Source of the DNA: a virus
Virus record (IMG/VR): IMGVR_UViG_3300037245_003639
DNA: 64,000 nucleotides
Reading direction: 5' to 3' (one strand)
Positions within the stretch are counted from its first letter, which is position 1. Each line of letters opens with the position of its first letter. This document shows positions 12,138 to 61,114 of the stretch, piece after piece. The notes beneath the pieces were generated by a model. It searched no databases and was not told where the DNA came from. It saw nothing but the letters and a program-made list of their open reading frames with translations. Position numbers and translations under genes: made by a program.

Positions 12138-12671
12138 TCAGTCCTCCACTTCCATTGGTTTCAGGCTTCCCGTCAAAAGGCCCCATTTCGTCAAAGCAAC
12201 GATTGTTTTGGCATCGGTAATTGTTCCGTCCGAAATCTGTTCGACAACATGACCGACAGACAGAGTAATCGGCTCAAATTCACGCTCACCCGGACAGACT
12301 TCCAATCCCCAAGCCAAATACAAGTGGATGACTTCGGAACAGAATCCGGGGGAAGGCAGCATCGTTCCCAAAGATGCTATGTGAGACGGCTTGTGGCCGA
12401 TTTCTTCCACCATCTCACGGACCCCCGTCATACTCAGGGCTTCGCCTGCCACGTCACAAGTCCCCGCAGGGATTTCGATAACGTCACATTCTGGCCCCGC
12501 TCGATGCTGACTACAGAGCAATATCAAAGAATCCTCTGCGCATGGCGGGGCTTGCCCTGCCTTGAGATCCTGTGAGCCCCATTTGAGCACAGGAATCACA
12601 GCGACGGAGCCAGGGTGATCAACGACGCTATAGCCGTTGTCACGGATAACAACTTTGAAGGGAGCAGGCAT
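12138..12671 (-). CDS. NUDIX hydrolase, ADP-ribose pyrophosphatase-like
   Basis: Nudix box GTCDVAGEALSMTGVREMVEEIGH (GX5EX7REUXEEXGU). The N-terminal SVAVIPV resembles the ADPRase family. Confidence 0.7.
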   Translation of the reverse strand: MPAPFKVVIRDNGYSVVDHPGSVAVIPVLKWGSQDLKAGQAPPCAEDSLILLCSQHRAGPECDVIEIPAGTCDVAGEALSMTGVREMVEEIGHKPSHIASLGTMLPSPGFCSEVIHLYLAWGLEVCPGEREFEPITLSVGHVVEQISDGTITDAKTIVALTKWGLLTGSLKPMEVED

Positions 12672-12673
12672 AT

Positions 12674-13006
12674 TTACATCCTTGTAAAACGACGCATTTC
12701 TCGAAATCGATGGCCCTGGTTAGCCAAATGAACCATCACTTCAATGCGTGAGCATAGAGATTGGCAAGGGACGCCACCCAAAACCATATCAGCAGGCACC
12801 CGCGCATCATCGAGGGCCTTTTCAATATTCTGCGTTCGCCTATGAGCGAAAGCGAGTCTCTTGCCAAGTTCTGCGCAGAGATTATCCAACTCCTCGCGAG
12901 AAAGAAACTCATCGACAATAAGTTTATCAAGAGCCGCTTTCGCTGCGGGATCTATGACAGCCTCTTTGCAAATTTTCGCGGCAACTGGGAGCAACGCTTT
13001 CTCCAT
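12674..13006 (-). CDS. hypothetical protein
   Basis: 110-aa ORF with its ATG directly behind promoter 13018..13046. Confidence 0.45.
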   Translation of the reverse strand: MEKALLPVAAKICKEAVIDPAAKAALDKLIVDEFLSREELDNLCAELGKRLAFAHRRTQNIEKALDDARVPADMVLGGVPCQSLCSRIEVMVHLANQGHRFREMRRFTRM

Positions 13007-13017
13007 TCACTGGATAC

Positions 13018-13046
13018 AGCATACCAGCAGACAAAAAGATTGTCAA
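13018..13046 (-). promoter_or_regulatory. sigma70-type promoter (TTGACA-17-TATGCT)
   Basis: ccTTGACAatctttttgtctgctggTATGCT. Confidence 0.6.
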
Positions 13047-13062
13047 GGAGAAATTCGAGTGC

Positions 13063-13371
13063 TTAGGCGGGTTCTGTTTCGATAAGATGACCGCATTGAG
13101 CGCAGCGGAGTAGTATTTGATCACTCTTTTTGCATCGAATTACATCCGTGGGAATGCGACAATGAGGACAATCGCTGCCATGTGGTAGTTCAAAAACAGC
13201 GTCTACATCGTCAAGAGCGTAATGAGTTTGGTGATTAATTGCAAAATGATAACCGTTCCAGCCCGCCACCATCCAACCGTCAGTAACATTGTAAATCAGA
13301 TATGGGCCAACGGTTAGTTGCCGGGCGTCAGTTTTCACTCTCCAAATGTTCATCGGATTCTCGACTTTCAT
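13063..13371 (-). CDS. zinc-ribbon protein, paralog of 13898..14203
   Basis: The C-terminal CPHCRIP...LLRCAQCGHLIETE is shared with ...CSCGLP...LLYCSQCGNLVEME in the paralog. Confidence 0.5.
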   Translation of the reverse strand: MKVENPMNIWRVKTDARQLTVGPYLIYNVTDGWMVAGWNGYHFAINHQTHYALDDVDAVFELPHGSDCPHCRIPTDVIRCKKSDQILLRCAQCGHLIETEPA

Positions 13372-13383
13372 TTATCCTATCCA

Positions 13384-13873: not shown

Positions 13874-13897
13874 GTTTTATGTTGCCTCCACACATCT

Positions 13898-17621: not shown

Positions 17622-18494
17622 TCAACTGGAAGGACCATCTCCCCAACGAAATTTCGTAACTAGGTTATGCCAACGGGGATAATGGGGATTCTGCATGATT
17701 AGAGCGCGTTTCCGAGCGCTCCGCACTTCAAGAATATCCTGTGCATCAAGGTTAAAAACGTCCTGCCCGTCAACGACAACATCTGTTCCTTCATTGACTC
17801 GGACTGCCTCGATACGGATTTGGCTGTCAGCATCCACCACGATCGGGCAACAGTCAAAGGAATGGGCGTTGAGGGGATTGAGGATGATTCCTGGCATTCC
17901 AGGCATCATTACGGGGCCATGAGCGGACAGATTGTACGCTGTAGAGCCTGTAGGTGTCGCCACAATAATGCCGTCCCCACCGACCGTAGCAAGCTCGATA
18001 CCGTCCACAATCAGCTTTAGATAGACCATACGATGCGGGGCGCCAGCGTTGATAACCACGTCATTCAGCGCCCACTGCCACGGTCTCCAATCGCCCAGCT
18101 TGCCTTGAATCCGCATTTGCAGCATAAGTCGCCGTATAATGTTCGCATCTGTGAGTTCTGGCAGTAACTCTTTCAATTCCGCGACTGAAAAAGCGGTCAG
18201 GAATCCGACCTTGCCGAAGTTGACACCAATCAGCGGAACCTGACGTTCTTCCAACTGGCGGGCCACTGACAACATGGTTCCATCACCACCCAGAACGACG
18301 ATGCGGTCTGCATTGTACTTTGGCAAATCGCCAATAGTGAACTTGGAACCCTCCCCAACGGAGTCTACACAGACGAGTTCTCCAACAGACTTTACCAAAG
18401 CCAGAATTTCTGGGAGAGCATCTTGAACTTCTTGCTTCATGAGATTAGAGACAATTGCATATTTCATAGAGTTGCACTCGTGGGATGTTGCCAA
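17622..18494 (-). CDS. nadK: NAD+ kinase
   Basis: GGDGTMLSVARQ, NDVVINAG and DGIIVATPTGSTAYNLSAHGP are the diagnostic NadK/PpnK motifs. Confidence 0.8.
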   Translation of the reverse strand: MATSHECNSMKYAIVSNLMKQEVQDALPEILALVKSVGELVCVDSVGEGSKFTIGDLPKYNADRIVVLGGDGTMLSVARQLEERQVPLIGVNFGKVGFLTAFSVAELKELLPELTDANIIRRLMLQMRIQGKLGDWRPWQWALNDVVINAGAPHRMVYLKLIVDGIELATVGGDGIIVATPTGSTAYNLSAHGPVMMPGMPGIILNPLNAHSFDCCPIVVDADSQIRIEAVRVNEGTDVVVDGQDVFNLDAQDILEVRSARKRALIMQNPHYPRWHNLVTKFRWGDGPSS

Positions 18495-19507
18495 TGATAC
18501 GTGATATCCCCAGTATGAGGATCGAGTATTTCTGTTCGGATGGTATCAGGACTGTCAGAAACAGTCAAACAGTCAGCCAAACAAAGATTCTGGCCGTCGA
18601 TATCATAGACATGGAACTCGTGGTCACCGGCAGTGAAAGTATAGATACGAACACCGTTTTTCTTAACCCATGCCTCGATTATCTGTTCGTCTTGCGGTTC
18701 TAAACCATGTTTGTCAACCCATTCATCAGCCTCGGTCAGTTGACCCTCGGGCTTATGCTCAGGGCGACGGATTGGACGGATGGTAAGTTCTTCTATTCCA
18801 TATTTACGACACCAATGAACCGTTTGATTCACCGCATCAGATGAATCGACAAAACCCTTCTGCATCATCACGCAGATACGAACTTTGAATCCGAAACCAT
18901 GAAGGAACTGCACTGTCCGTTCGAGAGGCGGATACTCTTCATGCTCGCGGTGATGTAAATAAACTCTTTGATTCCATCCCTGGTGAACTCCCACCGTAGA
19001 AATGGCGATTTTGTTCAAACCAAGTTCTCTCCATTCCATCAATGCCCGATACAGACGTAATTGAGGCAAAGAAGCGCCCGTTTTAACTCCACGGTTCTCT
19101 TTCATCGCCACCTGGAACCGAGCCACTCCGTACTCTTCAATCAACTTGGCCAACCGGCCAATACGGATCGCATTGGTTTGTAGTTCCAGGATCGGGAAGA
19201 CAGGTAAATGAACTTTTTGGATTGGCTGCACTGACCCCGCAGGAGTAAACTCTACATCTTGTCCCATAGCTCGTAAAGCCCTGAGATAAGTTGTAATCTC
19301 TAACGGATAAAGTGTCGGTTCTCCCTTACCTGTCAGTAAGAGAGTTGTAGTTCGAGATTGTCGCGCTAATGCGACAGCCCTGCCAAACTCAGGCCAGTCA
19401 ATCCCAGCGGTGTCTTTTCTGTAACCGGTGCATTTCGAGATACAGAAAGGACAGCCGCCATCACAGGACGATGTACCTACCACAATAGAGAAGGTTGATA
19501 TCTTCAT
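18464..19507 (-). CDS. radical SAM enzyme (subfamily unknown)
   Basis: N-terminal CDGGCPFC (the CxxxCxxC cluster) and a GKGEPTLYP glycine-rich SAM motif. Trimmed to the MKIST start. Confidence 0.65.
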   Translation of the reverse strand: MKISTFSIVVGTSSCDGGCPFCISKCTGYRKDTAGIDWPEFGRAVALARQSRTTTLLLTGKGEPTLYPLEITTYLRALRAMGQDVEFTPAGSVQPIQKVHLPVFPILELQTNAIRIGRLAKLIEEYGVARFQVAMKENRGVKTGASLPQLRLYRALMEWRELGLNKIAISTVGVHQGWNQRVYLHHREHEEYPPLERTVQFLHGFGFKVRICVMMQKGFVDSSDAVNQTVHWCRKYGIEELTIRPIRRPEHKPEGQLTEADEWVDKHGLEPQDEQIIEAWVKKNGVRIYTFTAGDHEFHVYDIDGQNLCLADCLTVSDSPDTIRTEILDPHTGDITYHWQHPTSATL

Positions 19508-20034
19508 GCTGCCGCCCTCGGTTGTGCTAAAGTAAGGTTGTGTTCCCAAAAATAACGAGTCGGACTGTCGTCATCGAACTCGATTTCGTATGCTTGACAG
19601 CCAGGAGCAGGGAGACCAAACTCATTGTTGCGAGCTATCACTGTCCCTAGTTGGTCGTTCTTTGGACCGTAGGGGTACATAATTCCACTTCGCCCATTCA
19701 CGAAGACCCTATCTCCCACGTCGAACTTTCTGGCTGCCTCAGCCCGTTGCTTGGCAAGATCGAAGCCCTCTCGAATCAGGGCTTTCGGCGGGCCATAATC
19801 AGGATGTTTATTAGTTAGCCTGCAATGGCTGAATGAGACACAATTGTAATGACCACATTTCTTACAGAAGTAGCCAGAACCACAGCCGAGCATGTTGATT
19901 GTGGTATGACATTTGCCACAGCATTCACCGCTCCAACCATTGAAGCCCGGCCAACAAAGAGCATCGGCCACTTTCTCAATCGTCCAGCCCATAAGTCGGG
20001 CGAATCGGATAGCTGCTACTGCTGCACTTGCCAT
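19504..20034 (-). CDS. Cys-rich hypothetical protein
   Basis: CWPGFNGWSGECCGKCH...CGSGYFCKKCGHYNC. Confidence 0.45.
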   Translation of the reverse strand: MASAAVAAIRFARLMGWTIEKVADALCWPGFNGWSGECCGKCHTTINMLGCGSGYFCKKCGHYNCVSFSHCRLTNKHPDYGPPKALIREGFDLAKQRAEAARKFDVGDRVFVNGRSGIMYPYGPKNDQLGTVIARNNEFGLPAPGCQAYEIEFDDDSPTRYFWEHNLTLAQPRAAA

Positions 20035-20036
20035 GG

Positions 20037-21821
20037 CTAAATCCTCAATCTGCGGCAGCGTCTTTGCCGCTTGGACGCGGGCCGTTTCGCTTTGGGCGTT
20101 CGCTTGACCCCTGTACTGGCTGCTACTTTTGTTTTGTTCATGCCAAGCTTCTTCTGGCGCAATTCAAGTGCTTTTACTTCTCTCTCTTGGGCTTTGTCAT
20201 ACTTCTCGTCAATACGGGCGGTCTTCATTTCGTCACGAAAATAATTGATTCCAATTAACGGAGAAGTCAATGAATCATCATCAACGTCTCTGGCCCGGCC
20301 TTGTGACAAATCGTGATAAAGACGATAGAACTCCTCGGTGTGGATATGCGTTCGCCCTGTATCCTCATCGTGAGCCATTTCATGCGTCAGGACTGAGAAC
20401 AGTTCAACCATGCCACGTTCGCTGCCTGTCGCAACTCGCTTGAGCCATGTTTTACTCATGGCGATATACGTTCCGCCGTCAGTCCAAGCGGCGTAAGTAT
20501 CACTGACACCAACTGTCAAATGACGACCACGCCATAAATTGAAATACCCACCAACTTTATTCAAAACCCTGATAATGCGCCGTTCGGCCTCATTCCATTT
20601 ATCCTGAACCAAGATATAGGTAGACCGCGTGTAGGAACTCGACAAACCGCCGTAACCATCGAAAGGTCGAAACCATTTGCTGGACGGTTTGAAGGCATCG
20701 CCACCCGTGAGCCAAACGAAGAAATCAGCGGGGTCGCCCGAATAGCTCAACTCCGACAAGATTTGAGCGTTGATGCAGATAGCCCTGTCAAGCTGCATGA
20801 GTTTATCTGCGACTTCATCGTCCTGAGGAGCGAATGTCCACGGCGAGCGGTTCTTTCGTATTAGATCCAACGTCAGAGCCCGACCAGAACTCGTTTCGAT
20901 TAGAGAGATAGTTTTCCAGTCTGCGAATCTTTCAACGCCATCTCGCAAGTCGAGCAGCGTGGCAATTCGCTCATGCGGTTGGAGATATCCACGAGATTCG
21001 GTTCTTGTCCGTCTAACTCGATTCTCGCGGATAACTGCCTGAATGCACTTCCATACCGGGCAATCATATTGGATATCGTTGCGAGCGAAGTTCACCTTCA
21101 ACTGACGCTTCGAGACGACTACGCCGGTCACGCCAGCCGTCGAGGCGTCGATATCCTTACAGTGGGCTCCCAAGTTGTAAACGCTTAGATTGACGCCCCG
21201 CGCCCACAGATAGTAGGCGTAATCGTCCTCGTCATCCCAATCAAGTTCTGCGGGGTCAGTCGAAATCAGAGTCCCGTTGAAATAAACAGGGACAGCCACG
21301 AACTCAACTAGCTTCTTGATAGCCTCTTGTAGGGCATCCACTGAGGAATAGCCGTTGCCAATCGGATTCCTGTAAAGTTCAATGGCAATTTTGCACCCTT
21401 TAACAAGAGACTGTTTCTCTATCCAGTCAAAATCAGCAGTGCAATTTTCCTCATCAACCTCAATATTCCACTGTTCAATATCCACTACGAGCTTATGGGT
21501 TCCAGTGAGCCAAGTATTGACCCCGAAACTAAACAACTGTCCACGGCCAATGCGGAATTGAGCCCAAATCTTATGTTCGTCTGCTGTATGGGGCTGACCA
21601 ACCGAGGCGAAATACCGCATGATATCACGCTTTGTGATAATGCCCCCACCAGTATCGTCAATAGTTAGGATGGTTCCATCCAAACCTACATGCACAGCTT
21701 CAGAGCCCGCCTCAATAGCATTCATAACGCCTTCTAAGACGGCTTTAGCTAACGAACCAGCCTGCCGCCGAAAAGCGTCATAGATGAATTTCGGATGGAC
21801 TCTGAAAGCATGTTTTGCCAT
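20037..21821 (-). CDS. GHKL-type ATPase fused to an HExxH metallopeptidase-like region and a basic tail
   Basis: Bergerat motifs LEGVMNAIEAG (ExxxNAxDA) and DDTGGGI (DxGxG), as in MutL, Hsp90 or MORC. A distal THEMAHDED segment and a Lys/Arg-rich C-terminus follow. AGGAG RBS, promoter 21854..21882. Confidence 0.55.
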   Translation of the reverse strand: MAKHAFRVHPKFIYDAFRRQAGSLAKAVLEGVMNAIEAGSEAVHVGLDGTILTIDDTGGGIITKRDIMRYFASVGQPHTADEHKIWAQFRIGRGQLFSFGVNTWLTGTHKLVVDIEQWNIEVDEENCTADFDWIEKQSLVKGCKIAIELYRNPIGNGYSSVDALQEAIKKLVEFVAVPVYFNGTLISTDPAELDWDDEDDYAYYLWARGVNLSVYNLGAHCKDIDASTAGVTGVVVSKRQLKVNFARNDIQYDCPVWKCIQAVIRENRVRRTRTESRGYLQPHERIATLLDLRDGVERFADWKTISLIETSSGRALTLDLIRKNRSPWTFAPQDDEVADKLMQLDRAICINAQILSELSYSGDPADFFVWLTGGDAFKPSSKWFRPFDGYGGLSSSYTRSTYILVQDKWNEAERRIIRVLNKVGGYFNLWRGRHLTVGVSDTYAAWTDGGTYIAMSKTWLKRVATGSERGMVELFSVLTHEMAHDEDTGRTHIHTEEFYRLYHDLSQGRARDVDDDSLTSPLIGINYFRDEMKTARIDEKYDKAQEREVKALELRQKKLGMNKTKVAASTGVKRTPKAKRPASKRQRRCRRLRI

Positions 21822-28128: not shown

Positions 28129-28376
28129 GTTTTTCTCCGACCGCCCCGTTTACCCAATTCCAGTGATTTGTCAGGACCGTAGAAAATATACTGCACTACT
28201 TCGACGCTGACCGTGTGGCCATGTGCTTTGGCATGTCTCGCTGCAACGCCCTGAGCATTCAGACTGGACCATTCCTTCTCACAGTCTTGGCATACTGCAA
28301 AAATGCATCGGCGACCCAGTTTGTAGCTCATGTCAATCCTACCAGCTAATTCCGTAGTCTCCAAGCAAGTCGGCAA
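28125..28376 (-). CDS. small zinc-binding protein
   Basis: CIFAVCQDCEKEW...HAKAHGH. The start is uncertain because the ORF overlaps its neighbour. Confidence 0.3.
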   Translation of the reverse strand: MPTCLETTELAGRIDMSYKLGRRCIFAVCQDCEKEWSSLNAQGVAARHAKAHGHTVSVEVVQYIFYGPDKSLELGKRGGRRKT

Positions 28377-29115: not shown

Positions 29116-29167
29116 AGTTTGCCTCCAGAGAATCACAGAATCATAACCAGGACTACTGCCGAGATGT

Positions 29168-29196
29168 ATGCTACCAGAGATAGAGAAGATTGTCAA
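29168..29196 (-). promoter_or_regulatory. sigma70-type promoter (TTGACA-17-TAGCAT)
   Basis: ccTTGACAatcttctctatctctggTAGCAT. It lies in a roughly 47-bp block that is duplicated at 29684-29730. Confidence 0.6.
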
Positions 29197-31257: not shown

Positions 31258-31264
31258 CAGATTC

Positions 31265-43475: not shown

Positions 43476-43492
43476 GATTTTGTTCCGCGAAC

Positions 43493-44994: not shown

Positions 44995-45672
44995 CTACAA
45001 CTTCGCTATATCATCCGCCTCAGCCGTCAACTCCTCGGGCTCTGGCGTGGTTATCGGTGCTGGAATTACATCGCCCTCATCAGGGGCAGCGGCCCCCAAG
45101 TCGGCTGTATCAGAAGGGGCAGAGACATAAGATTCCGCCGTCGTGTCATCAAACTCCCAGAGCGTGATATTCAGCTCCAGCGGCGTATCAGTATGTTCCT
45201 TGACCCACTTGGCAAACTTACTGCTGGTCTCGGTTCTCTTCTTCATTGCCTCGATGATTCCGAGAATCTTGGCTTTATCGCCACCTGCCAAACCACTGCC
45301 CATACCCGCCGGGATATGGACCTGATAGCCCAATCGCAAAGCTCTTAGAAACGTTACTTTCAAACAACGCTCCAAAGCTCTGTAATCAACCAGACAACCA
45401 GTACCGAGGGTTTGAGCGCACATGTTGGCGACAAACTTGCCCGTCTCGACTTCGACAAACTGTGTCTCCCCCATCGGAATGTCGCCCTGTGATTGTTCGT
45501 GCCACGCTTTGTAGGCCGCGACAGGAATGGGTGACATTTTACTCAGTGCCAAAACGAAGCCCCCACCCCAGGCACCCTTGCAGTTGACGATATGGGCAAT
45601 GATGACCCCATTTTTAGGAGTTCGAGAAACCGCCGTGGCATCTCCAGTTTTTATCTCAATCGGCATGGACAT
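44995..45672 (-). CDS. macro domain protein (ADP-ribose binding or hydrolase)
   Basis: VIIAHIVNCKGAWGGGFVLAL parallels the macro-domain (I/V)VNAAN...GGGGV motif. Confidence 0.6.
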   Translation of the reverse strand: MSMPIEIKTGDATAVSRTPKNGVIIAHIVNCKGAWGGGFVLALSKMSPIPVAAYKAWHEQSQGDIPMGETQFVEVETGKFVANMCAQTLGTGCLVDYRALERCLKVTFLRALRLGYQVHIPAGMGSGLAGGDKAKILGIIEAMKKRTETSSKFAKWVKEHTDTPLELNITLWEFDDTTAESYVSAPSDTADLGAAAPDEGDVIPAPITTPEPEELTAEADDIAKL

Positions 45673-47164: not shown

Positions 47165-49861
47165 TTAGATCAACGGTTCTTCAGGCCCAGGCCCAGACAC
47201 TGGCATACCTGGATGAAGCGTCGGCCCAGGCCCTTGCTCTGCTATCGGAATGCCAACATTACGTGGATTACGAACAACCTGGCGCAATTGCTCCCAGAGT
47301 TCCTCGTCATCTTCATCCCAATCACCATCATCCTCTTCCATTTGATTGAAACCAAGCTTTATTCTGTCTTGGAACTCATTGCGATGACGATCAAAGAGTC
47401 TAAAAGTGCGTCCGGTATCAAGTTTTTTGTGACTAATGATGTCCAAAGCAAACAATTTGCGAATTTCTTCCATTTCCGCGAAAGTATAATCTTTTGTGCG
47501 TTCGGTCAGATCGCTTATATCCAAAACGCTCAACATGTCCTGTTGGAACCTCTCTGTAATAAACTGCGTCCGTAGTTTCTCTCCCGGGGCAGAGAATGGC
47601 AGCCACAGGTCAATACGCCCTGGACGCACAAACGCTTCATCCAATTCAACCATTTCGTTGGCAGTAAAAACGAAGACGATTCCTTCGGTCGGATAGATAC
47701 CATCCATGTTCGTCAGGAAGGGCAGAATCTCATAGTTGCCTGTCTTCCGATCTTTGATCATTACATCCAAATCATCAAAGAAGACAATAGCCGAACGATT
47801 GCGGGGCGGCGTGAATAACTGCCGAACTGAACCATGCCGTCTGACATCTTCATATTCTTCAAGCGTTATTACTCGATGGTAGAATCCATGTTCAATGGCC
47901 AGATTTCGCAGCCATTTGCAAGTCATCGTGTTATGATTTATAAAGCCACCCGCAGCGAAGGAGTGAGATTCTGGCACATAGAAGTCTGCGACAAAGTTCT
48001 GCGCAGAAACGTTGCTTTTGACCTGATCCCAGAAAATATCACCGCGAGCAATATTCCGCATTCTCGCAAGAACTTCTTTCCCAATTTTAGTTTCATCTAC
48101 AAGTTGAAGAAGGCGTTCAGACTTTCCATGAGACATTCTCTGAGTTCCGTCCTTGTATCTCTGGAACTCAGCGTGCATTCGACGATTGAAATTGCCACTT
48201 AATTTACATACATCTCTGAGCAAATCTGGATCATAGGGCACAATATCATAATTAGTGTTATACTTTTTCTCCTGGAATCTGATTTGTTTCCGTGCCACGC
48301 GGAATCCGATTTCGTCGAAGAAGCATTTAGCCTCCTTGCCATTTATATCTATAGCCCAAGCACCGTTATAATCATTGGGCTTATGACGCAATGATGAGAT
48401 AATACCAAAGTTGGTGAGCATCAGATGGACTGTTCGAGCTAACTCCTCAGAGTAGGAGTCAAAACCAACTCGACCCGTTGTATCTGCCCACCCGTCAGTA
48501 TCAAACAACCCCTGCAAAAACGCTCTTACACAGTCTTGCGGAGCCTCCAAAATACAACGTGGAACAGATTTTTGACATGCTCCCGCAGAACCAAGACCCA
48601 GGAGTTTGAGGAATCCTTTGATCTGAACGCTTTCAATGGTCACCGAAGTCAACCCATCGCGTCGTTTATCATCCTGCACATGAGGAGTTACCGAGAAGAG
48701 TCTGGAGAATAAAGCCACATATTCTCTCTCTAAGTCCGCCGTGGAGAATGCGATTCTGTTCTTGGTAGTTAAATTACCATCACCAGTAAGTAACCCCAGA
48801 AGATATGCGAGATCATCATCGAGAACAGATGGCAAGGAAACAGGGAGCCTACCAGAAGCCGTATGAGCATACGAGATATCTGTTTTGTACCCGAACAACA
48901 TCATCTTACGAGGAACAGCTACAAAATCGCCCTCTTCAATCTCGTCTAGCCTTTTCCATGTAATATCCTGTCCATCTGTTACAATGACGCGATGATTCCA
49001 CGTTCCTTCAAGTTGATAGCCAAAACGAGTGCTTATCTTTTTAGTGTCTCGCCATCCGCCATTGTAAATTTGGGCAGTTTCTTCTCGATGGCCATCTTTA
49101 TTCCATATAGTTACTGACTTGTCTGTGGCGTCATCAACTGCAAGATCTTCTATAAACTCGCCAATAGGCAGCAACCCGCTATTTGTAAATACAGGAGTAT
49201 CAAGAGAACAGCACTTTCCACATCCGGGTTTTCCGCACAACAAGGCTCCCCGTTTGTAAGGAATGTTGTACTTATCGTATTGGGCCTTCTTCTCTTTACC
49301 ATCCACTAGAAAACCAATAGTGTTTTTGTAAATATCAGTCAACATTCCACGAGGCAGGACAGGTGGTTCCAAGTTAGTAGCAGAGTGCTTCTCAATCTTC
49401 CTGGCGAATTTACGTAGACTAAAAAGGTTCCGTTTCTCCACAAATATGGAGAAACTAAGGGGATGATCGTCGAATTCACCGTTCCAATGCCAAAAACGAA
49501 CGGAATCACGTTCTCTTTGTGGACGGTTACGCTGATCAGGATTGAAGATAACGTATTCCCGCAACCCTACATCATAGCGGTCATACCATGAGCCATCATG
49601 TAATGCTGCCTGGGTTTGAACTATAAGTTTACCTTTTCCCTGGTCCTTTTTAGGCAACATTCCCATGGGCATGTCAATAGCGACAGGAATTCGCCTGATA
49701 TGTTTGACATCACGGGTTTCTTTAGAATTAGTAAGCTTGAGGCTTGCAGAAAATCTGCACATACAAAGGTCATCTTGTGAGAAGTCATATTCATCACAAA
49801 GGGCCTTAACAGCATATGCAAAAACAGCTTCGGGGTACTCAGGTTCAAAAACCATATTCAA
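47165..49861 (-). CDS. AAA+ ATPase (classic-clade type) interrupted by an intein
   Basis: The Walker A motif GKPGCGK|C...HN|T is split. The second region of homology is FTANEMVELDEAFVRPGRIDL. Acidic C-terminus. Confidence 0.7.
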   Translation of the reverse strand: MNMVFEPEYPEAVFAYAVKALCDEYDFSQDDLCMCRFSASLKLTNSKETRDVKHIRRIPVAIDMPMGMLPKKDQGKGKLIVQTQAALHDGSWYDRYDVGLREYVIFNPDQRNRPQRERDSVRFWHWNGEFDDHPLSFSIFVEKRNLFSLRKFARKIEKHSATNLEPPVLPRGMLTDIYKNTIGFLVDGKEKKAQYDKYNIPYKRGALLCGKPGCGKCCSLDTPVFTNSGLLPIGEFIEDLAVDDATDKSVTIWNKDGHREETAQIYNGGWRDTKKISTRFGYQLEGTWNHRVIVTDGQDITWKRLDEIEEGDFVAVPRKMMLFGYKTDISYAHTASGRLPVSLPSVLDDDLAYLLGLLTGDGNLTTKNRIAFSTADLEREYVALFSRLFSVTPHVQDDKRRDGLTSVTIESVQIKGFLKLLGLGSAGACQKSVPRCILEAPQDCVRAFLQGLFDTDGWADTTGRVGFDSYSEELARTVHLMLTNFGIISSLRHKPNDYNGAWAIDINGKEAKCFFDEIGFRVARKQIRFQEKKYNTNYDIVPYDPDLLRDVCKLSGNFNRRMHAEFQRYKDGTQRMSHGKSERLLQLVDETKIGKEVLARMRNIARGDIFWDQVKSNVSAQNFVADFYVPESHSFAAGGFINHNTMTCKWLRNLAIEHGFYHRVITLEEYEDVRRHGSVRQLFTPPRNRSAIVFFDDLDVMIKDRKTGNYEILPFLTNMDGIYPTEGIVFVFTANEMVELDEAFVRPGRIDLWLPFSAPGEKLRTQFITERFQQDMLSVLDISDLTERTKDYTFAEMEEIRKLFALDIISHKKLDTGRTFRLFDRHRNEFQDRIKLGFNQMEEDDGDWDEDDEELWEQLRQVVRNPRNVGIPIAEQGPGPTLHPGMPVSGPGPEEPLI
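47930..49213 (-). mobile_element. intein (about 428 aa) with a LAGLIDADG homing-endonuclease domain, inserted in the P-loop of the AAA+ ATPase
   Basis: It starts at Cys217 (CSLDTPV) and ends FINHN followed by Thr. It carries two LAGLIDADG motifs (LLGLLTGDGNL and LQGLFDTDGWA). Excising it restores GKPGCGKT. Confidence 0.65.
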
Positions 49862-52234: not shown

Positions 52235-55200
52235 ATGGAGTCCCAAATGTCCTTCCGATATCAATTCAATAAAAAAGCCATGTTTGTCCATGGCGAAGGC
52301 GACCAAATTGTTGCTTACCGCGATAAAATATGGCTGCTGAGTCGTAACGACGACGAAGCCAATGTCCCTATTATGGAAGACATCGAGAAAACGCTCGCAT
52401 TTGAGCCATTAGGAGATGTCCATGATTTGCTGGGAGCTATTAGGGACAATCGCCCTGATGTTCTGACAGGTTTTATCGAAGGTGACCAGTTGAATATCAA
52501 CGTCGGTAGCGACTGGCGTTTTGGTCGAGGGTCTCACCTTCTTCAGAAAGTCATGGAGGAACTTGGACTAAGAGAAGTCATCTATACCAACCTTGAAGGA
52601 GAGGAATACGAAACCACTCACGGTTCAGAAATCACTGGCCAAATGCCCAAGTATCTCTATCATGGAACTACATCAGAGAACGCTTTCGGCATACTGCGTT
52701 TCGGACTCGCTCCTGACAGAGCCGATACAAATTACCCCAGTAAAGGCGGTAATCCACCCATTGAACATTATGACAAAGTATTCCTCACGGAAGATATCCA
52801 GAATGCTGAGTATCACGCTTTCAATGCGGTAACTCGCGATATCCAACCTGGAATGCCTGGGCAATATGACGTTAACAACCAAGGCCGAGGATTCCCGGTT
52901 ATCTTCCAGTTTCAAATTCCTGATCCAAATCTCTTAATCGCAGATTTAGATGTTGAACATATGTCGGATACTCCTACCGGGCACTATGATTATGTGCCTG
53001 AAAGGAGAGAGCACGATCCCCAAATTAAAGAATCCCCCGAGCAATTCTCTAAGCAAGTTGGGCTTCTGGGATATAAAGGTCGTATCCCTGCGAACTTCAT
53101 TACTGACATCATGGTCTGGATCGGCGACACAGAAAAAACCTATGGCTTTGATGAGGACAACTGGCAAAGAGTAGAGGCCGAGCAACTTGAACGAGCATTG
53201 GAGTGGGGCGACATTCAAGGCATCTATTACGATCCTGAAGAGGATGAAGACTACTGTGCTGAATGCGGTAGTATGCGTGATGATGAAGGCCGCTGTGAAT
53301 GCGAGGAACCTGAAGTTGAGTCCATAGCAAGACAAGCTATGGTCAAAACCGCTCGCACGAAAAAGATAGTTAATGCACTTGCGGAAACTAAAACCGAAAG
53401 TTATTTGATTCACGATATTGACCGCTACATCTCAGATGATATTGCCATCAATATTACTTTCCAAGAAACAAAGCATCGTTATTCCGTGGGCGTATACAGC
53501 ACTAACTATAAGGTTGGAGTTTCCGGCTATCAAGAATACTGGCATTATGATCGTAGCGACCGAGCGCAGGCCCTAAAGACTTACAACTCTATCGTCGCTG
53601 TGATAGCCGAAATGGTAGAAGAAATCGAGTTCAATGCTATCCCGCACACTTTGGCTAAGCCTTTTTTGGTAAAACGTCTCGATAAAATCGACGTGGAGCA
53701 CAAAGAACGAAGTGGCGTGTATCATTACAATTGGTTCGCCGCAGAGGCTGAAAAAGAAGAAGACTGGCGCTCAACCATTTATGGCAAACGGTATCCTGTT
53801 GCTCCTTACTTAGAGCGGTTAGACCACAACTGGAATGAGCCCGGGCAAAGCAGTGCTATTGAAACTAAAGGCCAAAGCAGGCACAAAACATATCAATTCC
53901 GTTATGCGTCAAGCAAGACAAGTCTGACTAAAGACGGAGGCAAGGGTCTAGGATTCTTACTCGGTTTGTCACCTGGATTATTGGGTGCCTTTCTAATGTG
54001 GGCTGCTCATATTAAGGGGCTACCACAAGAAGAAGTTATTCAGCAGGCCAATGAGAATCCTCAAATGCTCGCTCCTATTGTTCATGAGTTTAAGGAGTAC
54101 GCTGAAGTTCCCCTGTACGAGGAACCACTAGAAGCCATCACAGCCCCTACCGAGACCACTTCTTTTGACGATGCTTTAGCCGTCACATTGCAACATGAAG
54201 GTGGCTACGTCAAAAATGAGGTTGAGGAATCTTACCGAGGTGTTCGACGAATAACCTACGAGAGATATCTGGAGCAGCGGGGTTTACCGACTGACAATAT
54301 AGACATGCATAACATTCCAGAAGAGCATCTTCAGGATATTTATCGCACAATGTATTGGGATGCTTCAGGGGCAAACGAATTATCTCCACTTTTGGCTCAG
54401 CAAGTATTTGATTTTGCAGTCAATTCTGGCTCAGGCCGAGCAACACGTTATCTTCAAGGGATTATTGGAGTTGGTCAGGACGGGATTTTCGGCCCAAAAA
54501 CAAAAGCAGCCACAGAAGCCTATATCACCAAACATGGCGAGGAAGCCTTGGCCCAAGAGTACATTCATCGCCGTCGTGCTTTTATAACAGAGTCTGAGAA
54601 GATTCCTGACAAACTCAAGCCAGGGTTATTGAACCGTATTGATGCTATGGAACAATTGATTTCTCCCGCGAAAGAGATGCCCATCAAACCAAACTCTCCC
54701 GAACGTCGTTCCAGGGATGTTCCTGAACGTTTGATTCGTCCATTCTGGAGCAACCAGATTCATATACTGAATGATGGCAAAGAGGCTCAAGCCAAACCTA
54801 TGGCCTTAGAGCCAGGGGCTTACAAAGACGAGCCCATTCCGCACAGGTGGGTCAGCCATTTAGATGCCGCTCCGACGCCATATGGCATAATCCCTCAAAA
54901 ACAAGATCCGAAAGAAATTGAAGAGATGTATGCAGGCGTTCACGCTACTCCCAATATCAACATCGCCGCAATTTATGCGAACAACAGGGGGACAAAAAAA
55001 GATCCACCCGTTGTGATTGAGTTTGCCACTAAGCAATCTTGGGAACCTGACGTGGATATCGATACTCCAAGCGCTCGCGCTCAAATGGAGAGTATTCACG
55101 AACAAATTCAGGAAATCGATGGCCTTGGAGAACATATTGAGAGGTTCGAAGAGACCAACGAAATCGACTGGGAATATATCGAGGAGGTGTTCGATAAAAT

Positions 55201-55909
55201 CGAATCTAACGACGAATATCCCGATGTCTATGAGACCGATTATTCCAATTTTGATGTAAGTGACTACTTGCAAGAGAATGCTCAACGCGCTACACTCTCG
55301 GACTTGGCTGAGTTTTTCAGGACATTCTACGCGGAAGAAGATGACAGACAAGGCGTCTTTGATTTCCAACCTCCCCGGCACCTATTGGGTTTCTACGAAT
55401 GGTATCTAGCACCACTTTTCACAGGTCATGGAACCCTCGATGCGCGAATCGACGCTTGGTTTCTGAACCAGATGCGGTTTATGGACCCAATAAATGAGGA
55501 CGAAATCCTTGCTATTTACGAAGTTACCCGCTATAATCCAGAGGTATATGACTCCTGGAATCCCGAGACCGGCGAGGATGACGCTCGGGAGGAAGACGAT
55601 GAGGGTCGTCAGCTTGTCTCTCTGGAAGAAACGAATTATTGGGAACCGTCATTATCAAAGATTTGGGAATCGCCAACTGCCGATGCCAACCGCCAAAAAC
55701 AAACCTCTTACTACCATGGAACATCACTCAACCGAGCCCAAAAGGCCCTCAGTGGCATTCTTGATGTCCGCTCTGCCGCTTCAGAACTTGTGGTCAAACA
55801 TGGCCGGCATTGGGGAAAGATTGCCACGGAATTACGGCGGCGCGGCTTGCCCAAAACAGTGATAGCGAGCGTAAATGAGCAGTTTTTGAGAAATTTACGC
55901 ACCGCCTAA
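52235..55909 (+). CDS. giant multidomain protein with a GH108-type lysozyme and a peptidoglycan-binding domain, flanked by PARP-like (ART) segments
   Basis: The central LAVTLQHEGGYVKN...YRGV is the GH108 EGGY signature. It is followed by a PG_binding_3-like region (FDFAVNSG...GQDGIFGPKTKAA). YLYHGTTSENAFGILRFGL at the N-terminus and YYHGTSLNRAQKALSGIL near the C-terminus resemble the H-G-S/T...GIL catalytic start of the PARP at 59513. The start could be 52235 or 52247. Confidence 0.55.
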   Translation: MESQMSFRYQFNKKAMFVHGEGDQIVAYRDKIWLLSRNDDEANVPIMEDIEKTLAFEPLGDVHDLLGAIRDNRPDVLTGFIEGDQLNINVGSDWRFGRGSHLLQKVMEELGLREVIYTNLEGEEYETTHGSEITGQMPKYLYHGTTSENAFGILRFGLAPDRADTNYPSKGGNPPIEHYDKVFLTEDIQNAEYHAFNAVTRDIQPGMPGQYDVNNQGRGFPVIFQFQIPDPNLLIADLDVEHMSDTPTGHYDYVPERREHDPQIKESPEQFSKQVGLLGYKGRIPANFITDIMVWIGDTEKTYGFDEDNWQRVEAEQLERALEWGDIQGIYYDPEEDEDYCAECGSMRDDEGRCECEEPEVESIARQAMVKTARTKKIVNALAETKTESYLIHDIDRYISDDIAINITFQETKHRYSVGVYSTNYKVGVSGYQEYWHYDRSDRAQALKTYNSIVAVIAEMVEEIEFNAIPHTLAKPFLVKRLDKIDVEHKERSGVYHYNWFAAEAEKEEDWRSTIYGKRYPVAPYLERLDHNWNEPGQSSAIETKGQSRHKTYQFRYASSKTSLTKDGGKGLGFLLGLSPGLLGAFLMWAAHIKGLPQEEVIQQANENPQMLAPIVHEFKEYAEVPLYEEPLEAITAPTETTSFDDALAVTLQHEGGYVKNEVEESYRGVRRITYERYLEQRGLPTDNIDMHNIPEEHLQDIYRTMYWDASGANELSPLLAQQVFDFAVNSGSGRATRYLQGIIGVGQDGIFGPKTKAATEAYITKHGEEALAQEYIHRRRAFITESEKIPDKLKPGLLNRIDAMEQLISPAKEMPIKPNSPERRSRDVPERLIRPFWSNQIHILNDGKEAQAKPMALEPGAYKDEPIPHRWVSHLDAAPTPYGIIPQKQDPKEIEEMYAGVHATPNINIAAIYANNRGTKKDPPVVIEFATKQSWEPDVDIDTPSARAQMESIHEQIQEIDGLGEHIERFEETNEIDWEYIEEVFDKIESNDEYPDVYETDYSNFDVSDYLQENAQRATLSDLAEFFRTFYAEEDDRQGVFDFQPPRHLLGFYEWYLAPLFTGHGTLDARIDAWFLNQMRFMDPINEDEILAIYEVTRYNPEVYDSWNPETGEDDAREEDDEGRQLVSLEETNYWEPSLSKIWESPTADANRQKQTSYYHGTSLNRAQKALSGILDVRSAASELVVKHGRHWGKIATELRRRGLPKTVIASVNEQFLRNLRTA

Positions 55910-58339: not shown

Positions 58340-58343
58340 AATT

Positions 58344-58790
58344 ATGACAGACAGCAACGTGGATGACAGACAGCCTACGACCGTATTGGCTCGGCAGGCT
58401 ATCAAAAAAGCGCTCAAGGAAGTAGAATGGTGGAAACTTGTTCACGATGAAGTGAAAAAAGCCTTACATCTCATCATTGAACATATAGATACGCTTGGAA
58501 CACCTTTTCGAGATTCGTTTCGGGCAGCCTGTCAACTCGAAGCCATCCGTCGAGTAATACTCCAACAAAGCGGGGATGATAGCCCTAGTATCGTGTTCGG
58601 CTCAAAACTCCCAGAAGAAAAATACCAAAGCTCAAAGGCACCCGTAAAGTTATTGCTGGGATTAAATGACTGGTTTGATCCTAATGAAGCTGATGTTCAA
58701 TCTTGTTATTTAATCTGTGACCATGTGAACATTCTGGAACGACTAGATGTCATCGAAGGTCAAGATAAAAGCGGACCAAATGAAGAATAG
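58344..58790 (+). CDS. hypothetical protein
   Basis: 148-aa ORF. Confidence 0.45.
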   Translation: MTDSNVDDRQPTTVLARQAIKKALKEVEWWKLVHDEVKKALHLIIEHIDTLGTPFRDSFRAACQLEAIRRVILQQSGDDSPSIVFGSKLPEEKYQSSKAPVKLLLGLNDWFDPNEADVQSCYLICDHVNILERLDVIEGQDKSGPNEE

Positions 58791-58801
58791 GGAGCTTCCG
58801 C

Positions 58802-59443
58802 ATGATCAGCGAGGCCCAACTGCTCAAACAATGGGGAAACGACAGATTGGGTCTGGCAGCATTCCTGGGTTCAGCACTCAGTCACATTCCATCGTTAACC
58901 GATCCTTTTTGTAGCAGCTTCGGAGAAACTCTGTTTGCGAAACTAAGGATGTGCGAACGCATCGACCACTTGTACAACAAAATCGAACATCGACACAGAG
59001 AAAAAAAGGAGTTCCAAAAAACTGTAATATTCGGCTACCGAGATAAAATCGCATTCATCGAAGACAAAATCGGGGATTATGGTCATCTCTGCCTGATGAT
59101 GCTTCGCGATTTAGACCCTCCGAATCAAGTCTACGCTATTCGAATTTATACCGATGGCTCAGATTGTCCTCCTTTCTTATTGTCCACTTGGACTGACAAA
59201 TTTCCGACTTTCGAGAATGTCGCTGGTTATTGTAAACATGTGGTTCATAATAGCAGCAGTGAAAACGAAAGTGATTATGAACATGTTTGCGACCACGATG
59301 AAACCTTCTGGAATTTCGTATGCAATGACGAAGGTCTAAAAGTCTGGGAGCACTCCGAAGGGTTCATGGACTTACGTATGACCCGACGCATCGCCAAGCT
59401 TACCGAATGGACGAGCAATATGCTCGGATTCCAGGAAAGTTGA
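58802..59443 (+). CDS. hypothetical protein
   Basis: 213-aa ORF. Confidence 0.45.
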   Translation: MISEAQLLKQWGNDRLGLAAFLGSALSHIPSLTDPFCSSFGETLFAKLRMCERIDHLYNKIEHRHREKKEFQKTVIFGYRDKIAFIEDKIGDYGHLCLMMLRDLDPPNQVYAIRIYTDGSDCPPFLLSTWTDKFPTFENVAGYCKHVVHNSSSENESDYEHVCDHDETFWNFVCNDEGLKVWEHSEGFMDLRMTRRIAKLTEWTSNMLGFQES

Positions 59444-59457
59444 TTTTCTATAAAGGC

Positions 59458-59486
59458 TTGACAATCTTCCGAAAACTTGGTAATCT
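59458..59486 (+). promoter_or_regulatory. sigma70-type promoter (TTGACA-17-TAATCT)
   Basis: ggcTTGACAatcttccgaaaacttggTAATCT, then ggagatcctgcATG. Confidence 0.6.
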
Positions 59487-59512
59487 TCCGTAGTGTCAAT
59501 CGGAGATCCTGC

Positions 59513-61114
59513 ATGGCTACCAAACTTGGCAGAAAAGCGTATCCATCTGGCGTCAGCCCAGGCGATTTTGAGTGCTTTGGCCCAGTTGCTACAAAAGATG
59601 GTGAATTCGACGACGCCCGGCTCGCTGACCTGGGATGTTTCAACCAGGAAGGCGTAGATTCCAACAAATATTACCATGGGTCCATATGTAAAGCGAATGG
59701 CAAGTGGTATGTATACTTCCAGTGGGGACGGACGGGAGGCACGGGTGATTTCCAGTTCTTCGAGTGCTATGATGAGCATGATGCTCAGGAACAGTTCACC
59801 AAACAACTACGCTCGAAGAATGATAAACGGGGTGAATGGGTGATGAAAGGGGGACTCGGCAAAGTCCTCCGGGCCAAGCCCAATAAAGACTGCTATTTGG
59901 TTCGCCCGCTGGCTACCCGAGACGATACCAGCCCTGGATTGCCAGGAGCAATTGCTGTTACCACAGGTGACGTGAAGGTTAAGAAGACCGTCAAGAAAAC
60001 ATCGAAGAAGAAAACGAAAACTCCGTCTCGCACTTTCGATGCTGAAACGATCAGTCTCATGCGAGCAATGAATGTTGCTGCCGTCCAGTTTACAAAGAAA
60101 AGCATCCAAGGCGGCACCATTCCCACGCAAGCGTCTATCGAGGAAGCCCGAACGGTTCTTATCGAAGCCCAAAAACGGCTGGTCGTTGTAGGCGACAACG
60201 TAAAATCCCAAATCGCTGATACAGAGCTTCGCCAGTTGACCTATCACCTGTACGGCAGGGTTCCCAAAATCAAGCGGGTAGGAGCCCCCGAGAGCGAGTG
60301 GATTCTAAGCCAGGATAACATCTTTACTTGGACCGCTGACTTGGATGCGTTCGAAAACGCTCTGGCCGTTGCTACAGTCGAAATCGAGGAAACCCAAACT
60401 GACAAAGACCCGCTCGGTGGGATGAAGATCGACATGCGGCACCTGCCTCTCGGTGACAAGCAAGGTGATTTCATCCGTAAATGGATGCCTGACGCTTCGC
60501 TTGACCGCCATTCGTGGGTTGGGGACATGAAGATCAAACATGTTTGGGAAGTCACTCGCCACGATGACCCCAAACGATTTGCTGGAGCTATTGACCGAAT
60601 CACTAAGGGGCGAGTGGACACAAGGCATAAGCCAATCAAACAGCCCCGAAAGCGAATCGACTTGGACACTCAGGAAGCCAAGCGTTACGAGGCTGCCAAT
60701 GTCGGAATGCTTTTCCACGGCACTCGTAGCGTCAACGTCCCGGGCATCCTGCGCACAGGATTGCGTTTACCCAACCAACTTGTTGGCGTCGTCATTACAG
60801 GAGCCATGTTTGGCCCTGGTATTTATTGGGCTGACGACTGGAAGAAGAGTGCGGGATACACGAGCCTCAGTGGTTCATACTGGAGTTCTGGCAGCGGCGG
60901 GGTGCGCGGTCGCAAAGCATTTATGTTCGTGGCCGACGTTGCACTTGGGACTGCCCACGTAGCAAACGGATACCGTGGTTATACGGCGGCGCCAAGGGGC
61001 TGTCACTGTGTTTTCGGGAAAGCGGGTAGTAGCGGAGTTGCAAATAACGAGTGGATCGTCTATACTAACGAGCAAAATCGTCTTCGCTATCTCGTGGAGT
61101 TTGATGCCAAATAG
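59513..61114 (+). CDS. WGR-domain poly(ADP-ribose) polymerase-like protein
   Basis: WGR motif WYVYFQWGRTGGTG. The catalytic core LFHGTRSVNVPGILRTGLRLP...AMFGPGIYWADDWKKSAGY...NEWIVY parallels the PARP1 H-G-S / GKGIYFAD / YNEYIVY triad. Confidence 0.75.
   Translation: MATKLGRKAYPSGVSPGDFECFGPVATKDGEFDDARLADLGCFNQEGVDSNKYYHGSICKANGKWYVYFQWGRTGGTGDFQFFECYDEHDAQEQFTKQLRSKNDKRGEWVMKGGLGKVLRAKPNKDCYLVRPLATRDDTSPGLPGAIAVTTGDVKVKKTVKKTSKKKTKTPSRTFDAETISLMRAMNVAAVQFTKKSIQGGTIPTQASIEEARTVLIEAQKRLVVVGDNVKSQIADTELRQLTYHLYGRVPKIKRVGAPESEWILSQDNIFTWTADLDAFENALAVATVEIEETQTDKDPLGGMKIDMRHLPLGDKQGDFIRKWMPDASLDRHSWVGDMKIKHVWEVTRHDDPKRFAGAIDRITKGRVDTRHKPIKQPRKRIDLDTQEAKRYEAANVGMLFHGTRSVNVPGILRTGLRLPNQLVGVVITGAMFGPGIYWADDWKKSAGYTSLSGSYWSSGSGGVRGRKAFMFVADVALGTAHVANGYRGYTAAPRGCHCVFGKAGSSGVANNEWIVYTNEQNRLRYLVEFDAK

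Follow-up and report, generated by a model that had tools for sequence, protein, structure and literature searches.

NAD+ is a main battleground between bacteria and phages, and the locus described here raises the question of whether a phage that encodes several enzymes of NAD+ and ADP-ribose metabolism carries them as one system. The locus lies on the IMG/VR virus record IMGVR_UViG_3300037245_003639, of which we analyzed a stretch of 64,000 nucleotides, here referred to as the window. An initial annotation, made from the sequence alone, had described five dispersed genes as an NAD+/ADP-ribose toolkit: those for a WGR-domain poly(ADP-ribose) polymerase (PARP), a macrodomain protein, a Nudix hydrolase, an NAD kinase (NadK) and a hydrolase of the nicotinamidase family. 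The identities of all five proteins were upheld by Pfam, PDB profile, motif and fold evidence, including the H-Y-E triad of the PARP and the macro and Nudix folds. As a toolkit, however, the set is smaller than proposed. Three of the five enzymes, the PARP, the macrodomain protein and the nicotinamidase, recur together or adjacent to each other in related huge phages, whereas the Nudix and NadK genes are unlinked to them, both in the flanks of PARP, macrodomain or nicotinamidase genes in other phages (about 200 loci, about 4 Mb) and in LR756511.1, the closest GenBank phage. At about even confidence, we read the three as parts of an ADP-ribosylation cycle that is run by the phage and has its own nicotinamide recycling, with a kinase/phosphatase cassette as a possible regulator.

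The window is a piece of a huge phage genome of about 0.4 to 0.6 Mb, since homologues of several of its proteins sit on contigs of 0.3 to 0.6 Mb and its nearest phage, the uncultured LR756511.1, is complete at 595 kb. Proteins identical to those of the window were found on fragments from run SRR11832402 and on one short contig from the Joint Genome Institute (JGI). The initial annotation had regarded such a complement of enzymes as unusual for one mobile genome. This view is not borne out by the literature: Macro, Nudix, ADP-ribosyltransferase (ART), PARP and NAD+ synthesis genes are frequent in jumbo phages, 45% of which have a Nudix gene (PMC9503650, PMC7824862), and domains of the NAD+-ADP-ribose network increase with phage genome size (PMC9503650). 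Neither survey mentions a nicotinamidase or an NAD kinase (PMC7824862, PMC9503650). The enzymes of the window all belong to known families, as new members, and NAD+/ADP-ribose systems of jumbo phages have already been published; what is new is the linkage of the nicotinamidase, in a system that the window contains only in part.

A PncA-type nicotinamidase within a kinase/PP2C/vWA cassette

The nicotinamidase of the window belongs to the isochorismatase superfamily. Across 34 homologues, there is no variation in its Asp-Lys-Cys triad (D57, K214 and C264) or in the residues that bind metal (D100, H102 and H180), and these motifs align to those of the PncA proteins of Mycobacterium tuberculosis and Pyrococcus horikoshii. 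A family profile run against PDB retrieved nicotinamidases only (2.4e-11). Likewise, the best 15 Foldseek matches of an AlphaFold model (predicted local distance difference test score, 95) were all nicotinamidases, with TM-scores of 0.70 to 0.81 on the target for 14 of them. The Pfam Isochorismatase model PF00857 does not match the window protein and is carried by 1 of 120 among the homologues listed. In comparison with characterized PncA and Pnc1 enzymes, the phage protein has the same triad, metal site and fold; it is larger (338 amino acids versus 180 to 235), and in phages its gene is usually wedged among genes for a Ser/Thr kinase, a PP2C-type phosphatase and a vWA protein.

This genetic context was overlooked in the initial annotation. 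The genes run in the order PP2C, kinase with zinc ribbon, nicotinamidase, GNAT and vWA, all on the same strand and either overlapping or separated by very short gaps. The kinase family profile matches protein kinases (RSK2, 7e-8), and its GGEG loop, K37, DxNxxN and ID motifs are invariant. The zinc ribbon that follows the kinase domain is conserved in the subfamily to which the window kinase belongs and is missing from most related loci (type B). The GNAT gene is lineage specific, being seen solely in the same phage and its closest copies (L015 and L162).

Alignment-based scanning of IMG/VR yielded 63 nicotinamidase loci, 62 of which were scored by an iterative search of their open reading frames (ORFs). 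Exact 8-residue-pattern scans with single proteins (nicotinamidase, macrodomain protein, NadK and Nudix) were too strict and gave no relatives, and it was the alignments that recovered the nicotinamidase and macrodomain loci. Nicotinamidase, vWA, PP2C and kinase genes stand on the same strand in 27 of the 62 scored loci, in two gene orders, although the nicotinamidases of these loci are only 30 to 36% identical to that of the window. The vWA gene directly adjoins the nicotinamidase gene in 27 of the 62. LR756511.1 has the four genes in a same-strand group spanning no more than 12 kb.

A known system of similar composition is the TerY-P triad, which consists of a vWA protein, a PP2C phosphatase and a Ser/Thr kinase with a C-terminal zinc ribbon and of which relatives are reported as stand-alone anti-phage systems (PMC11090510). 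The window has the same three components, including the metal ion-dependent adhesion site (MIDAS) motif of the vWA protein and the zinc ribbon of the kinase, in a single same-strand cluster. Unlike TerY-P, however, its cassette is phage encoded, is split by the nicotinamidase gene and has a kinase with an extra domain of 330 amino acids. By analogy, the trio could plausibly be a phosphorylation switch acting on the nicotinamidase step.

The same resemblance would fit a phage-borne conflict system that works in the manner of TerY-P, for superinfection exclusion or against mobile elements, with the isochorismatase-fold enzyme as an effector whose substrate would not be free nicotinamide but, for example, nicotinamide mononucleotide, NAD+ or another amide. 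The large family-specific insertions of the nicotinamidase are in keeping with this idea. On the other hand, it has the catalytic and metal-binding residues of true nicotinamidases, and the linkages to PncB, NadE and a bacterial NrtR gene described below point to ordinary nicotinamide salvage. Furthermore, a PADLOC search with the three cassette proteins at an E value of ≤0.01 gave no credible match, the TerY-P content of the library being unverified; the sole hit paired the vWA protein with a HamB helicase model (0.006) and is at chance level. We therefore think a conflict system very unlikely, although the PADLOC result also counts against the reading that we favor. More generally, neither PADLOC nor NCBIfam was informative on the cassette proteins, the macrodomain protein or the PARP.

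Linkage of the nicotinamidase to macrodomain, PARP and Preiss-Handler genes

A macrodomain gene of the same class as that of the window (SCO6735 type, see below) was found within 10 kb in 7 of the 27 cassette loci, and also in L087; it is directly adjacent in L019, L021, L030 and L047. About 2.7 such cases would be expected if each genome had one such gene placed randomly in at least 200 kb, and a binomial estimate that does not control for relatedness gives a P value of about 0.016. A WGR-PARP gene lies within 10 kb in three cassette loci. The most complete array, in L030, is codirectional and reads PARP (WGR, PARP_reg and PARP domains), one other gene, macrodomain, nicotinamidase, vWA, further genes, PP2C, one other gene, kinase, one other gene, and finally PncB (nicotinate phosphoribosyltransferase) and NadE (glutamine-dependent NAD synthase). 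When the scan was anchored on PARP genes instead, PARP was seen beside a macrodomain gene in L181, beside nicotinamidase and PncB genes in L195 and beside nicotinamidase and vWA genes in L202, in each case with the partners within a few kilobases. LR756511.1 has its macrodomain gene 15 kb upstream of the nicotinamidase gene and its PARP gene 55 kb away, and a relative with about 56 to 65% protein identity keeps the order giant protein, AAA ATPase, macrodomain and then PP2C, kinase and nicotinamidase, as well as the giant protein followed at some distance by PARP.

Searches with the PncB and NadE proteins of L030 showed that, of the 63 loci, 33 have a PncB gene and 15 a NadE gene at most 10 kb from the nicotinamidase gene, in at least 6 arrangements. 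L078 also encodes a NadD-like adenylyltransferase and so has the whole Preiss-Handler set beside the nicotinamidase. The salvage genes also occur without the kinase/PP2C/vWA trio, namely, in L075 to L081 (IMG/VR sample 3300045988) and in L052 to L074 (human-gut samples); these lineages have either the complete set of nicotinamidase, PncB, NadE and NadD or a PncB gene adjoining the nicotinamidase gene. In addition, a homologue from Chloroflexota, which has no kinase, PP2C or vWA neighbors, adjoins an NrtR-type regulator of NAD metabolism. Because of the adjacency of PncB, NadE and NadD in phages and the NrtR neighbor in bacteria, we take the family to be a genuine salvage nicotinamidase that in phages is repeatedly tied to PARP, macrodomain and signaling-triad genes. 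As a side observation, an SPFH/Band-7 protein is encoded after NadE in L029.

Three phage pathways that rebuild NAD+ are known, none of which passes through nicotinic acid. These NAD+ reconstitution pathways, NARP1 to NARP3, likewise consist of phage genes acting on NAD+ breakdown products, and a PncA route is described in neither of the papers on them (bioRxiv 2024.02.11.579819; PMC13464706). Their defining enzymes (Adps and Namat, Nampt and Nmnat, and PnuC and NadR, respectively) are absent from the window, and the route suggested here, in contrast, would run via nicotinic acid. In the literature searched, we found no phage Preiss-Handler route, no phage nicotinamidase embedded in a vWA/PP2C/kinase cassette and no linkage of such a cassette with PncB, NadE, NadD, macrodomain or PARP genes.

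Given this precedent, the salvage genes could serve counterdefense in the first place, as a deamidated Preiss-Handler analogue of NARP1 to NARP3. Host TIR, SIR2 or SEFIR proteins would split NAD+ into nicotinamide and ADP-ribose, and the nicotinamidase, together with PncB, NadD and NadE of phage or host origin, would rebuild it; the Nudix enzyme would turn ADP-ribose into AMP and ribose-5-phosphate (for phosphoribosyl pyrophosphate), and the macrodomain protein would degrade ADP-ribose-derived signals or adducts. In favor of this view, many phage contigs have PncB, NadE and NadD genes adjoining members of this nicotinamidase family. Nevertheless, the window holds the first step only, and a nicotinamidase destroys nicotinamide, the direct substrate of a NAMPT route, while duplicating an enzyme that is common in hosts. 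The Nudix gene is not linked to the others, and the linkage to an NAD+-consuming PARP and to a kinase, a phosphatase and a vWA protein is left unexplained. For these reasons, we consider counterdefense as the primary role rather doubtful.

The macrodomain hydrolase, the PARP and the giant protein

The macrodomain protein belongs to the SCO6735/TARG1 (ALC1-like) class. It matches the SCO6735 macrodomain of Streptomyces coelicolor (PDB 5e3b) at 5e-22 and is about 40% identical to it in the macro core; the Pfam Macro model PF01661 is not reached by the window protein, which has no Pfam match at an E value of ≤0.01, and is carried by several more distant homologues. H49, N52, Q109 and the GxGLAGG loop (G147, G149, G152 and G153) are invariant in 34 homologues and are the counterparts of His24, Asn27, Gln85 and Gly128 of SCO6735, for which functional roles have been described (PMC9411070). 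SCO6735 strips ADP-ribose from Glu and Asp residues of proteins and, faster, from the thymidine-ADP-ribose made by DarT (PMC9411070). SCO6735, together with TARG1 and DarG, is thus the closest known system. The mobile loop with which SCO6735 handles DNA is shorter in the window protein. No recognizable DarT-type partner is encoded in the window, where the ART-fold domain of the giant protein matches DarT weakly. Unlike SCO6735, the phage proteins have a C-terminal extension of about 60 to 80 residues. It contains the sequence VTLWEFxDxxAxSYV and, after it, an acidic tail whose last residues are DDIAxL or DDLSELG; bacterial homologues lack this extension, which could be a docking peptide. We also considered that the macrodomain protein might serve mainly in RNA repair and set this idea aside: its class is not that of the Appr-1''-p phosphatases, and its gene never adjoins RtcB, Pnkp-like or ligase genes. 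Between the macrodomain and PP2C genes, the window encodes a DUF3268/Top1-type zinc-finger protein, whose start abuts the macrodomain stop, and two small sigma-70 region 4 proteins; all three may be regulators of this region.

The PARP has the domain order WGR, helical regulatory domain and ART. Pfam identified the WGR (3.3e-8) and PARP (8.9e-21) domains in the window protein, while PARP_reg was reached solely by its relative from L030. A family profile built from 32 homologues aligned with human PARP1 over all three domains (8e-41) and matched the helical domain at positions 203 to 353 with an independent E value of 5.6e-9. The H-Y-E triad, consisting of H402, Y438 and E513 as counted from the ATG at 59513, is invariant across the 32 homologues and aligns to the FHG, GIYFAD and NEYIVY motifs of PARP1 and PARP2. 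The protein therefore resembles the PARP1/2/3-type WGR-PARPs of eukaryotes and bacteria in domain order and triad; unlike them, it has neither zinc fingers nor a BRCT domain. The intact triad suggests that it can build ADP-ribose chains, and the WGR domain suggests a response to nucleic acid ends.

PARP ("PART") genes have been reported before in jumbo phages, for example, Xanthomonas phage XacN1 (PMC7824862). The annotated phage PARPs (of XacN1, Xoo-sp13 and others) are 32 to 41% identical to the window PARP in tblastn, over the ART domain only. The window PARP belongs instead to a large unannotated clade of proteins of about 530 amino acids on contigs of 0.3 to 0.6 Mb; the PARP of LR756511.1 is 53% identical to it. 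There are 860 homologues at an E value of ≤1e-10, many on contigs of 370 to 595 kb, and a megablast search of GenBank phages with the PARP region gave no match. The position of the gene directly after PARP is kept in a related scaffold (444 amino acids, 57% identical); its product in the window has 480 amino acids, with a membrane segment at the N terminus and long repeats that resemble coiled coils, and is without a Pfam match.

The giant protein of 1,237 amino acids was initially thought to contain two further PARP-like segments, one of which is real in part. Its N-terminal domain has an ART fold with the N-terminal His motif: the profile of its family (at least 354 proteins) and a structure model match ADP-ribosyltransferases, with Tpt1/KptA as the best match, so that it is nearer to Tpt1/KptA than to PARP. 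A single-sequence PDB search with the N terminus gave no match, and the fold emerged only from the family profile and the structure model. The C-terminal segment with the motif YYHGT proved to be spurious, as only 64 residues follow the motif, the orthologue reads YYDDE and hhalign gave a probability of 2%. The giant protein also contains a lysozyme, which matches a PHROG endolysin family at 8e-28. The arrangement of ART domain and lysozyme is consistent with delivery from the virion, as for T4 Alt, and the protein probably enters the cell from the virion. Hence, ADP-ribosylation in the manner of T4 Alt and ModA, as suggested in the initial annotation, fits insofar as there are two NAD+-consuming transferases, one of them lysozyme bearing; the likeness does not extend to the enzyme itself, because Alt is a virion-packaged transferase of the R-S-E clade and the ART fold of the giant protein is of the H-type clade (Tpt1, PARP and DarT).

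The Nudix hydrolase and NAD kinase

The Nudix hydrolase belongs to the NudF/NudE clade, although it scores barely above the Pfam NUDIX cutoff (22.9 versus 21.1 bits). Its best PDB relatives are NudF-type ADP-ribose pyrophosphatases (4e-14 to 7e-14). Such enzymes typically have a conserved proline about 15 to 16 residues downstream of the Nudix box; in the window protein, the box RExxEExG reads GEALSMTGVREMVEEIGH and the proline of an LPSPGF motif lies 15 residues past it. The protein is thus probably an ADP-ribose pyrophosphatase, although NudE and AdpP, the NCBIfam models concerned, match it only below their cutoffs. NadK is matched by both Pfam models, PF01513 and PF20143 (6e-26 and 7e-17), has the GGDG and GDG..TPTGSTAY motifs and is matched by NCBIfam NAD kinase models at up to 1.4e-53, below the equivalog cutoffs (182 versus 371 bits). 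Its start and the stop of a radical-SAM gene upstream of it share 4 bases; the radical-SAM gene has weak Pfam and NrdG/MoaA-like matches. The gene call and the overlap were also seen in L163. The overlap suggests translational coupling of the two genes and, for NadK, a partnership other than that with the ADP-ribose module.

Neither the NudF-type Nudix nor NadK has a homologue in the approximately 200 loci, and neither was detected in LR756511.1 by tblastn. A scan of JGI metagenome contigs for NadK gave no relative, so that the conservation of NadK and Nudix is judged solely from these loci and LR756511.1. Possible roles would be the removal of free ADP-ribose by the Nudix enzyme and the diversion of NAD+ to NADP+ by NadK; neither shows any link to the module.

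These observations bear on the possibility that there is no system at all, only five independent acquisitions in a gene-rich genome, each with a job of its own: the macrodomain protein against DarT-type DNA ADP-ribosylation, NadK as a source of NADPH for the radical-SAM enzyme, the Nudix protein in housekeeping and the nicotinamidase as a TerY-P-like effector. The genes are scattered over 49 kb on both strands, NadK and Nudix have no conserved partners, and NAD+-ADP-ribose domains increase with phage genome size, as noted above. Moreover, SCO6735, the closest characterized macrodomain protein, prefers the product of DarT (PMC9411070), and DarTG is a known anti-phage system. However, macrodomain, PARP, PncB and NadE genes adjoin the nicotinamidase cassette in several gene orders, with proteins that are 25 to 36% identical to those of the window; since the gene orders vary at this level of identity, inheritance alone is a poor explanation. 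We consider this possibility unlikely.

A proposed ADP-ribosylation cycle with nicotinamide recycling

From the protein identities, catalytic residues and gene linkages observed above, we infer the enzymatic activities, targets, virion delivery and kinase regulation that make up the phage-run cycle. Two writers would use NAD+: a soluble PARP of the PARP1-3 type, with WGR, helical and ART domains, and the ART-fold domain on the lysozyme-bearing protein, probably entering the cell from the virion. The macrodomain protein would be the eraser, taking ADP-ribose off Glu and Asp residues of proteins and possibly off thymidine in DNA. Each transfer would free nicotinamide, an inhibitor of such transferases, which the nicotinamidase would turn into nicotinic acid, from which the Preiss-Handler route (PncA, PncB, NadD and NadE) leads back to NAD+. 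The PncB, NadD and NadE steps, missing from the window and encoded beside the nicotinamidase in other phages, would be supplied by the host or by the phage genome outside the window. Finally, the TerY-P-like PP2C, zinc-ribbon kinase and vWA proteins would switch the nicotinamidase step by phosphorylation.

More tentatively, and as a possibility that we would not call probable, the cassette may be an undescribed, phosphorylation-controlled Preiss-Handler pathway, a "fourth NARP" of huge phages, and the phage of the window would then encode its regulated first step. In other phages, the cassette is joined to PncB, NadE and NadD, an SCO6735-type macrodomain protein and a WGR-PARP. By recycling nicotinamide via nicotinic acid, the pathway would support both the phage's own ADP-ribosylation and survival of host NADase defenses.

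Several findings weigh against the proposed cycle. The genes of the window do not form one operon: the PARP gene is on the opposite strand, 18 kb from the cassette, and the macrodomain gene lies 3 kb upstream of the cassette with unrelated genes intervening. The neighbors of PARP genes of the window-type clade are mostly unrelated, so that their neighborhood is not conserved, and when the first 14 PARP loci were compared with all window proteins by tblastn, PARP alone was in common. Among 40 PARP-bearing IMG/VR contigs, only 2 are in the nicotinamidase list and 4 among the best 80 of 129 macrodomain loci considered; one of the 2 is the L030 contig, whose macrodomain gene was found by the iterative search only. 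Because PARP contigs are so rare in these lists, much of the co-occurrence among close relatives may be plain shared ancestry. As the nicotinamidase has about 120 residues more than characterized enzymes, a different substrate is possible. Lastly, a Pfam scan of about 90 window proteins found no NAMPT, NMNAT, NadR, Adps, Namat, PncB, NadD or NadE and hence no NAD+-forming enzyme, and the three soluble-metabolite enzymes of the window are all catabolic or diverting relative to NAD+. The rerouting of NAD+ envisaged in the initial annotation is credible as a role of the nicotinamidase family, given its PncB, NadE and NadD neighbors in other phages.

Taken together, the analysis points to a widespread cluster of huge phages that combines a nicotinamidase, often with the rest of the Preiss-Handler route, with a putative switch, a macrodomain protein and sometimes a true PARP. 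If functional, it would make these phages the first viruses both to spend NAD+ on PARP-type signaling and to recycle the by-product under their own control, and it would offer a bacterial-virus system in which to study the coupling of PARP, macrodomain protein and nicotinamidase.

Table 1. Positions of the genes and domains discussed, with the main subjects first and other window genes below
Feature	Coordinates	Strand	Remarks
WGR-helical regulatory domain-ART PARP homologue	59513..61114	+	533 aa from ATG; ORF opens at TTG 59477
Macrodomain hydrolase, SCO6735/TARG1 class	44995..45672	-	Phage-specific C-terminal extension and acidic tail
Nicotinamidase, PncA type	37802..38818	-	338 aa with family-specific insertions
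PP2C-type phosphatase	40996..41805	-	First cassette gene, overlaps kinase start; Pfam PP2C_2 1.2e-11
Ser/Thr protein kinase	39114..41018	-	634 aa; CxxC...CxxC zinc ribbon and C-terminal domain of ~330 aa
GNAT-like acetyltransferase	37457..37801	-	Small, between nicotinamidase and vWA genes; Pfam Acetyltransf_1 0.0012, weak
vWA protein	36632..37453	-	Last cassette gene; MIDAS DxSxS (LLDASDSM); Pfam VWA 6.7e-6
Giant protein	52235..55909	+	1,237 aa; ART-fold domain and lysozyme
ART-fold domain, giant protein N terminus	52574..53119	+	From family profile and structure model
GH108 lysozyme and peptidoglycan-binding domain, giant protein	54179..54589	+	Pfam Glyco_hydro_108 3.6e-15, PG_binding_3 4.5e-5
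Nudix hydrolase, NudF/NudE clade, probably ADP-ribose pyrophosphatase	12138..12671	-	Real gene; no conserved link to module found
NAD kinase	17622..18467	-	ORF to 18494, likely start ATG 18467; no conserved link to module found
Radical-SAM protein	18464..19549	-	
Sigma-70 region 4 protein	41813..42043	-	
Sigma-70 region 4 protein	42990..43496	-	
DUF3268/Top1-type zinc-finger protein	44506..44994	-	
Gene directly after PARP	61124..62566	+	
AAA ATPase with intein	47165..49861	-	
RtcB ligase	23736..25145	-	
Polynucleotide kinase-phosphatase-like protein	30313..31275	-	
ATP-dependent ligase domain protein	34842..35477	-	
Beta-helix protein, secreted-looking	26608..28128	-	
Secreted-looking protein	28339..29196	-	
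Pilin-like protein	31489..31890	-	
GHKL-type ATPase domain protein	20037..21821	-	
DnaJ-domain protein	2892..3233	-	
Family-2 glycosyltransferase	4601..5437	+	

Other genes of the window

Gene orientation in the window changes at about 52 kb: before this point nearly all genes are on the minus strand and after it on the plus strand. No tRNAs or Rfam RNA families were found in the window. An RNA-repair set comprises the RtcB ligase (3.6e-77), the kinase-phosphatase-like protein (AAA_33 and PNK3P/HAD domains) and the ligase domain protein; such a set suggests protection against host anticodon nucleases, and no direct link of its genes to the macrodomain or ART genes was seen. Within the AAA ATPase gene lies an intein that carries a LAGLIDADG homing endonuclease domain (Pfam Intein_splicing, LAGLIDADG_3 and AAA), and the orthologue in a related scaffold is intein free at 462 amino acids.

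Two secreted-looking proteins both end in dockerin-like DGDGDVDLSDLAALL repeats, and the first of them is a right-handed beta-helix (Pfam Beta_helix, 8.5e-25, and Dockerin_1); a pilin-like protein with an N-terminal methylation motif is encoded near this pair. The window also encodes a DnaJ-domain protein, a glycosyltransferase of family 2 on the opposite strand and a 594-amino-acid protein with a weakly matched GHKL-type ATPase domain (HATPase_c_3).

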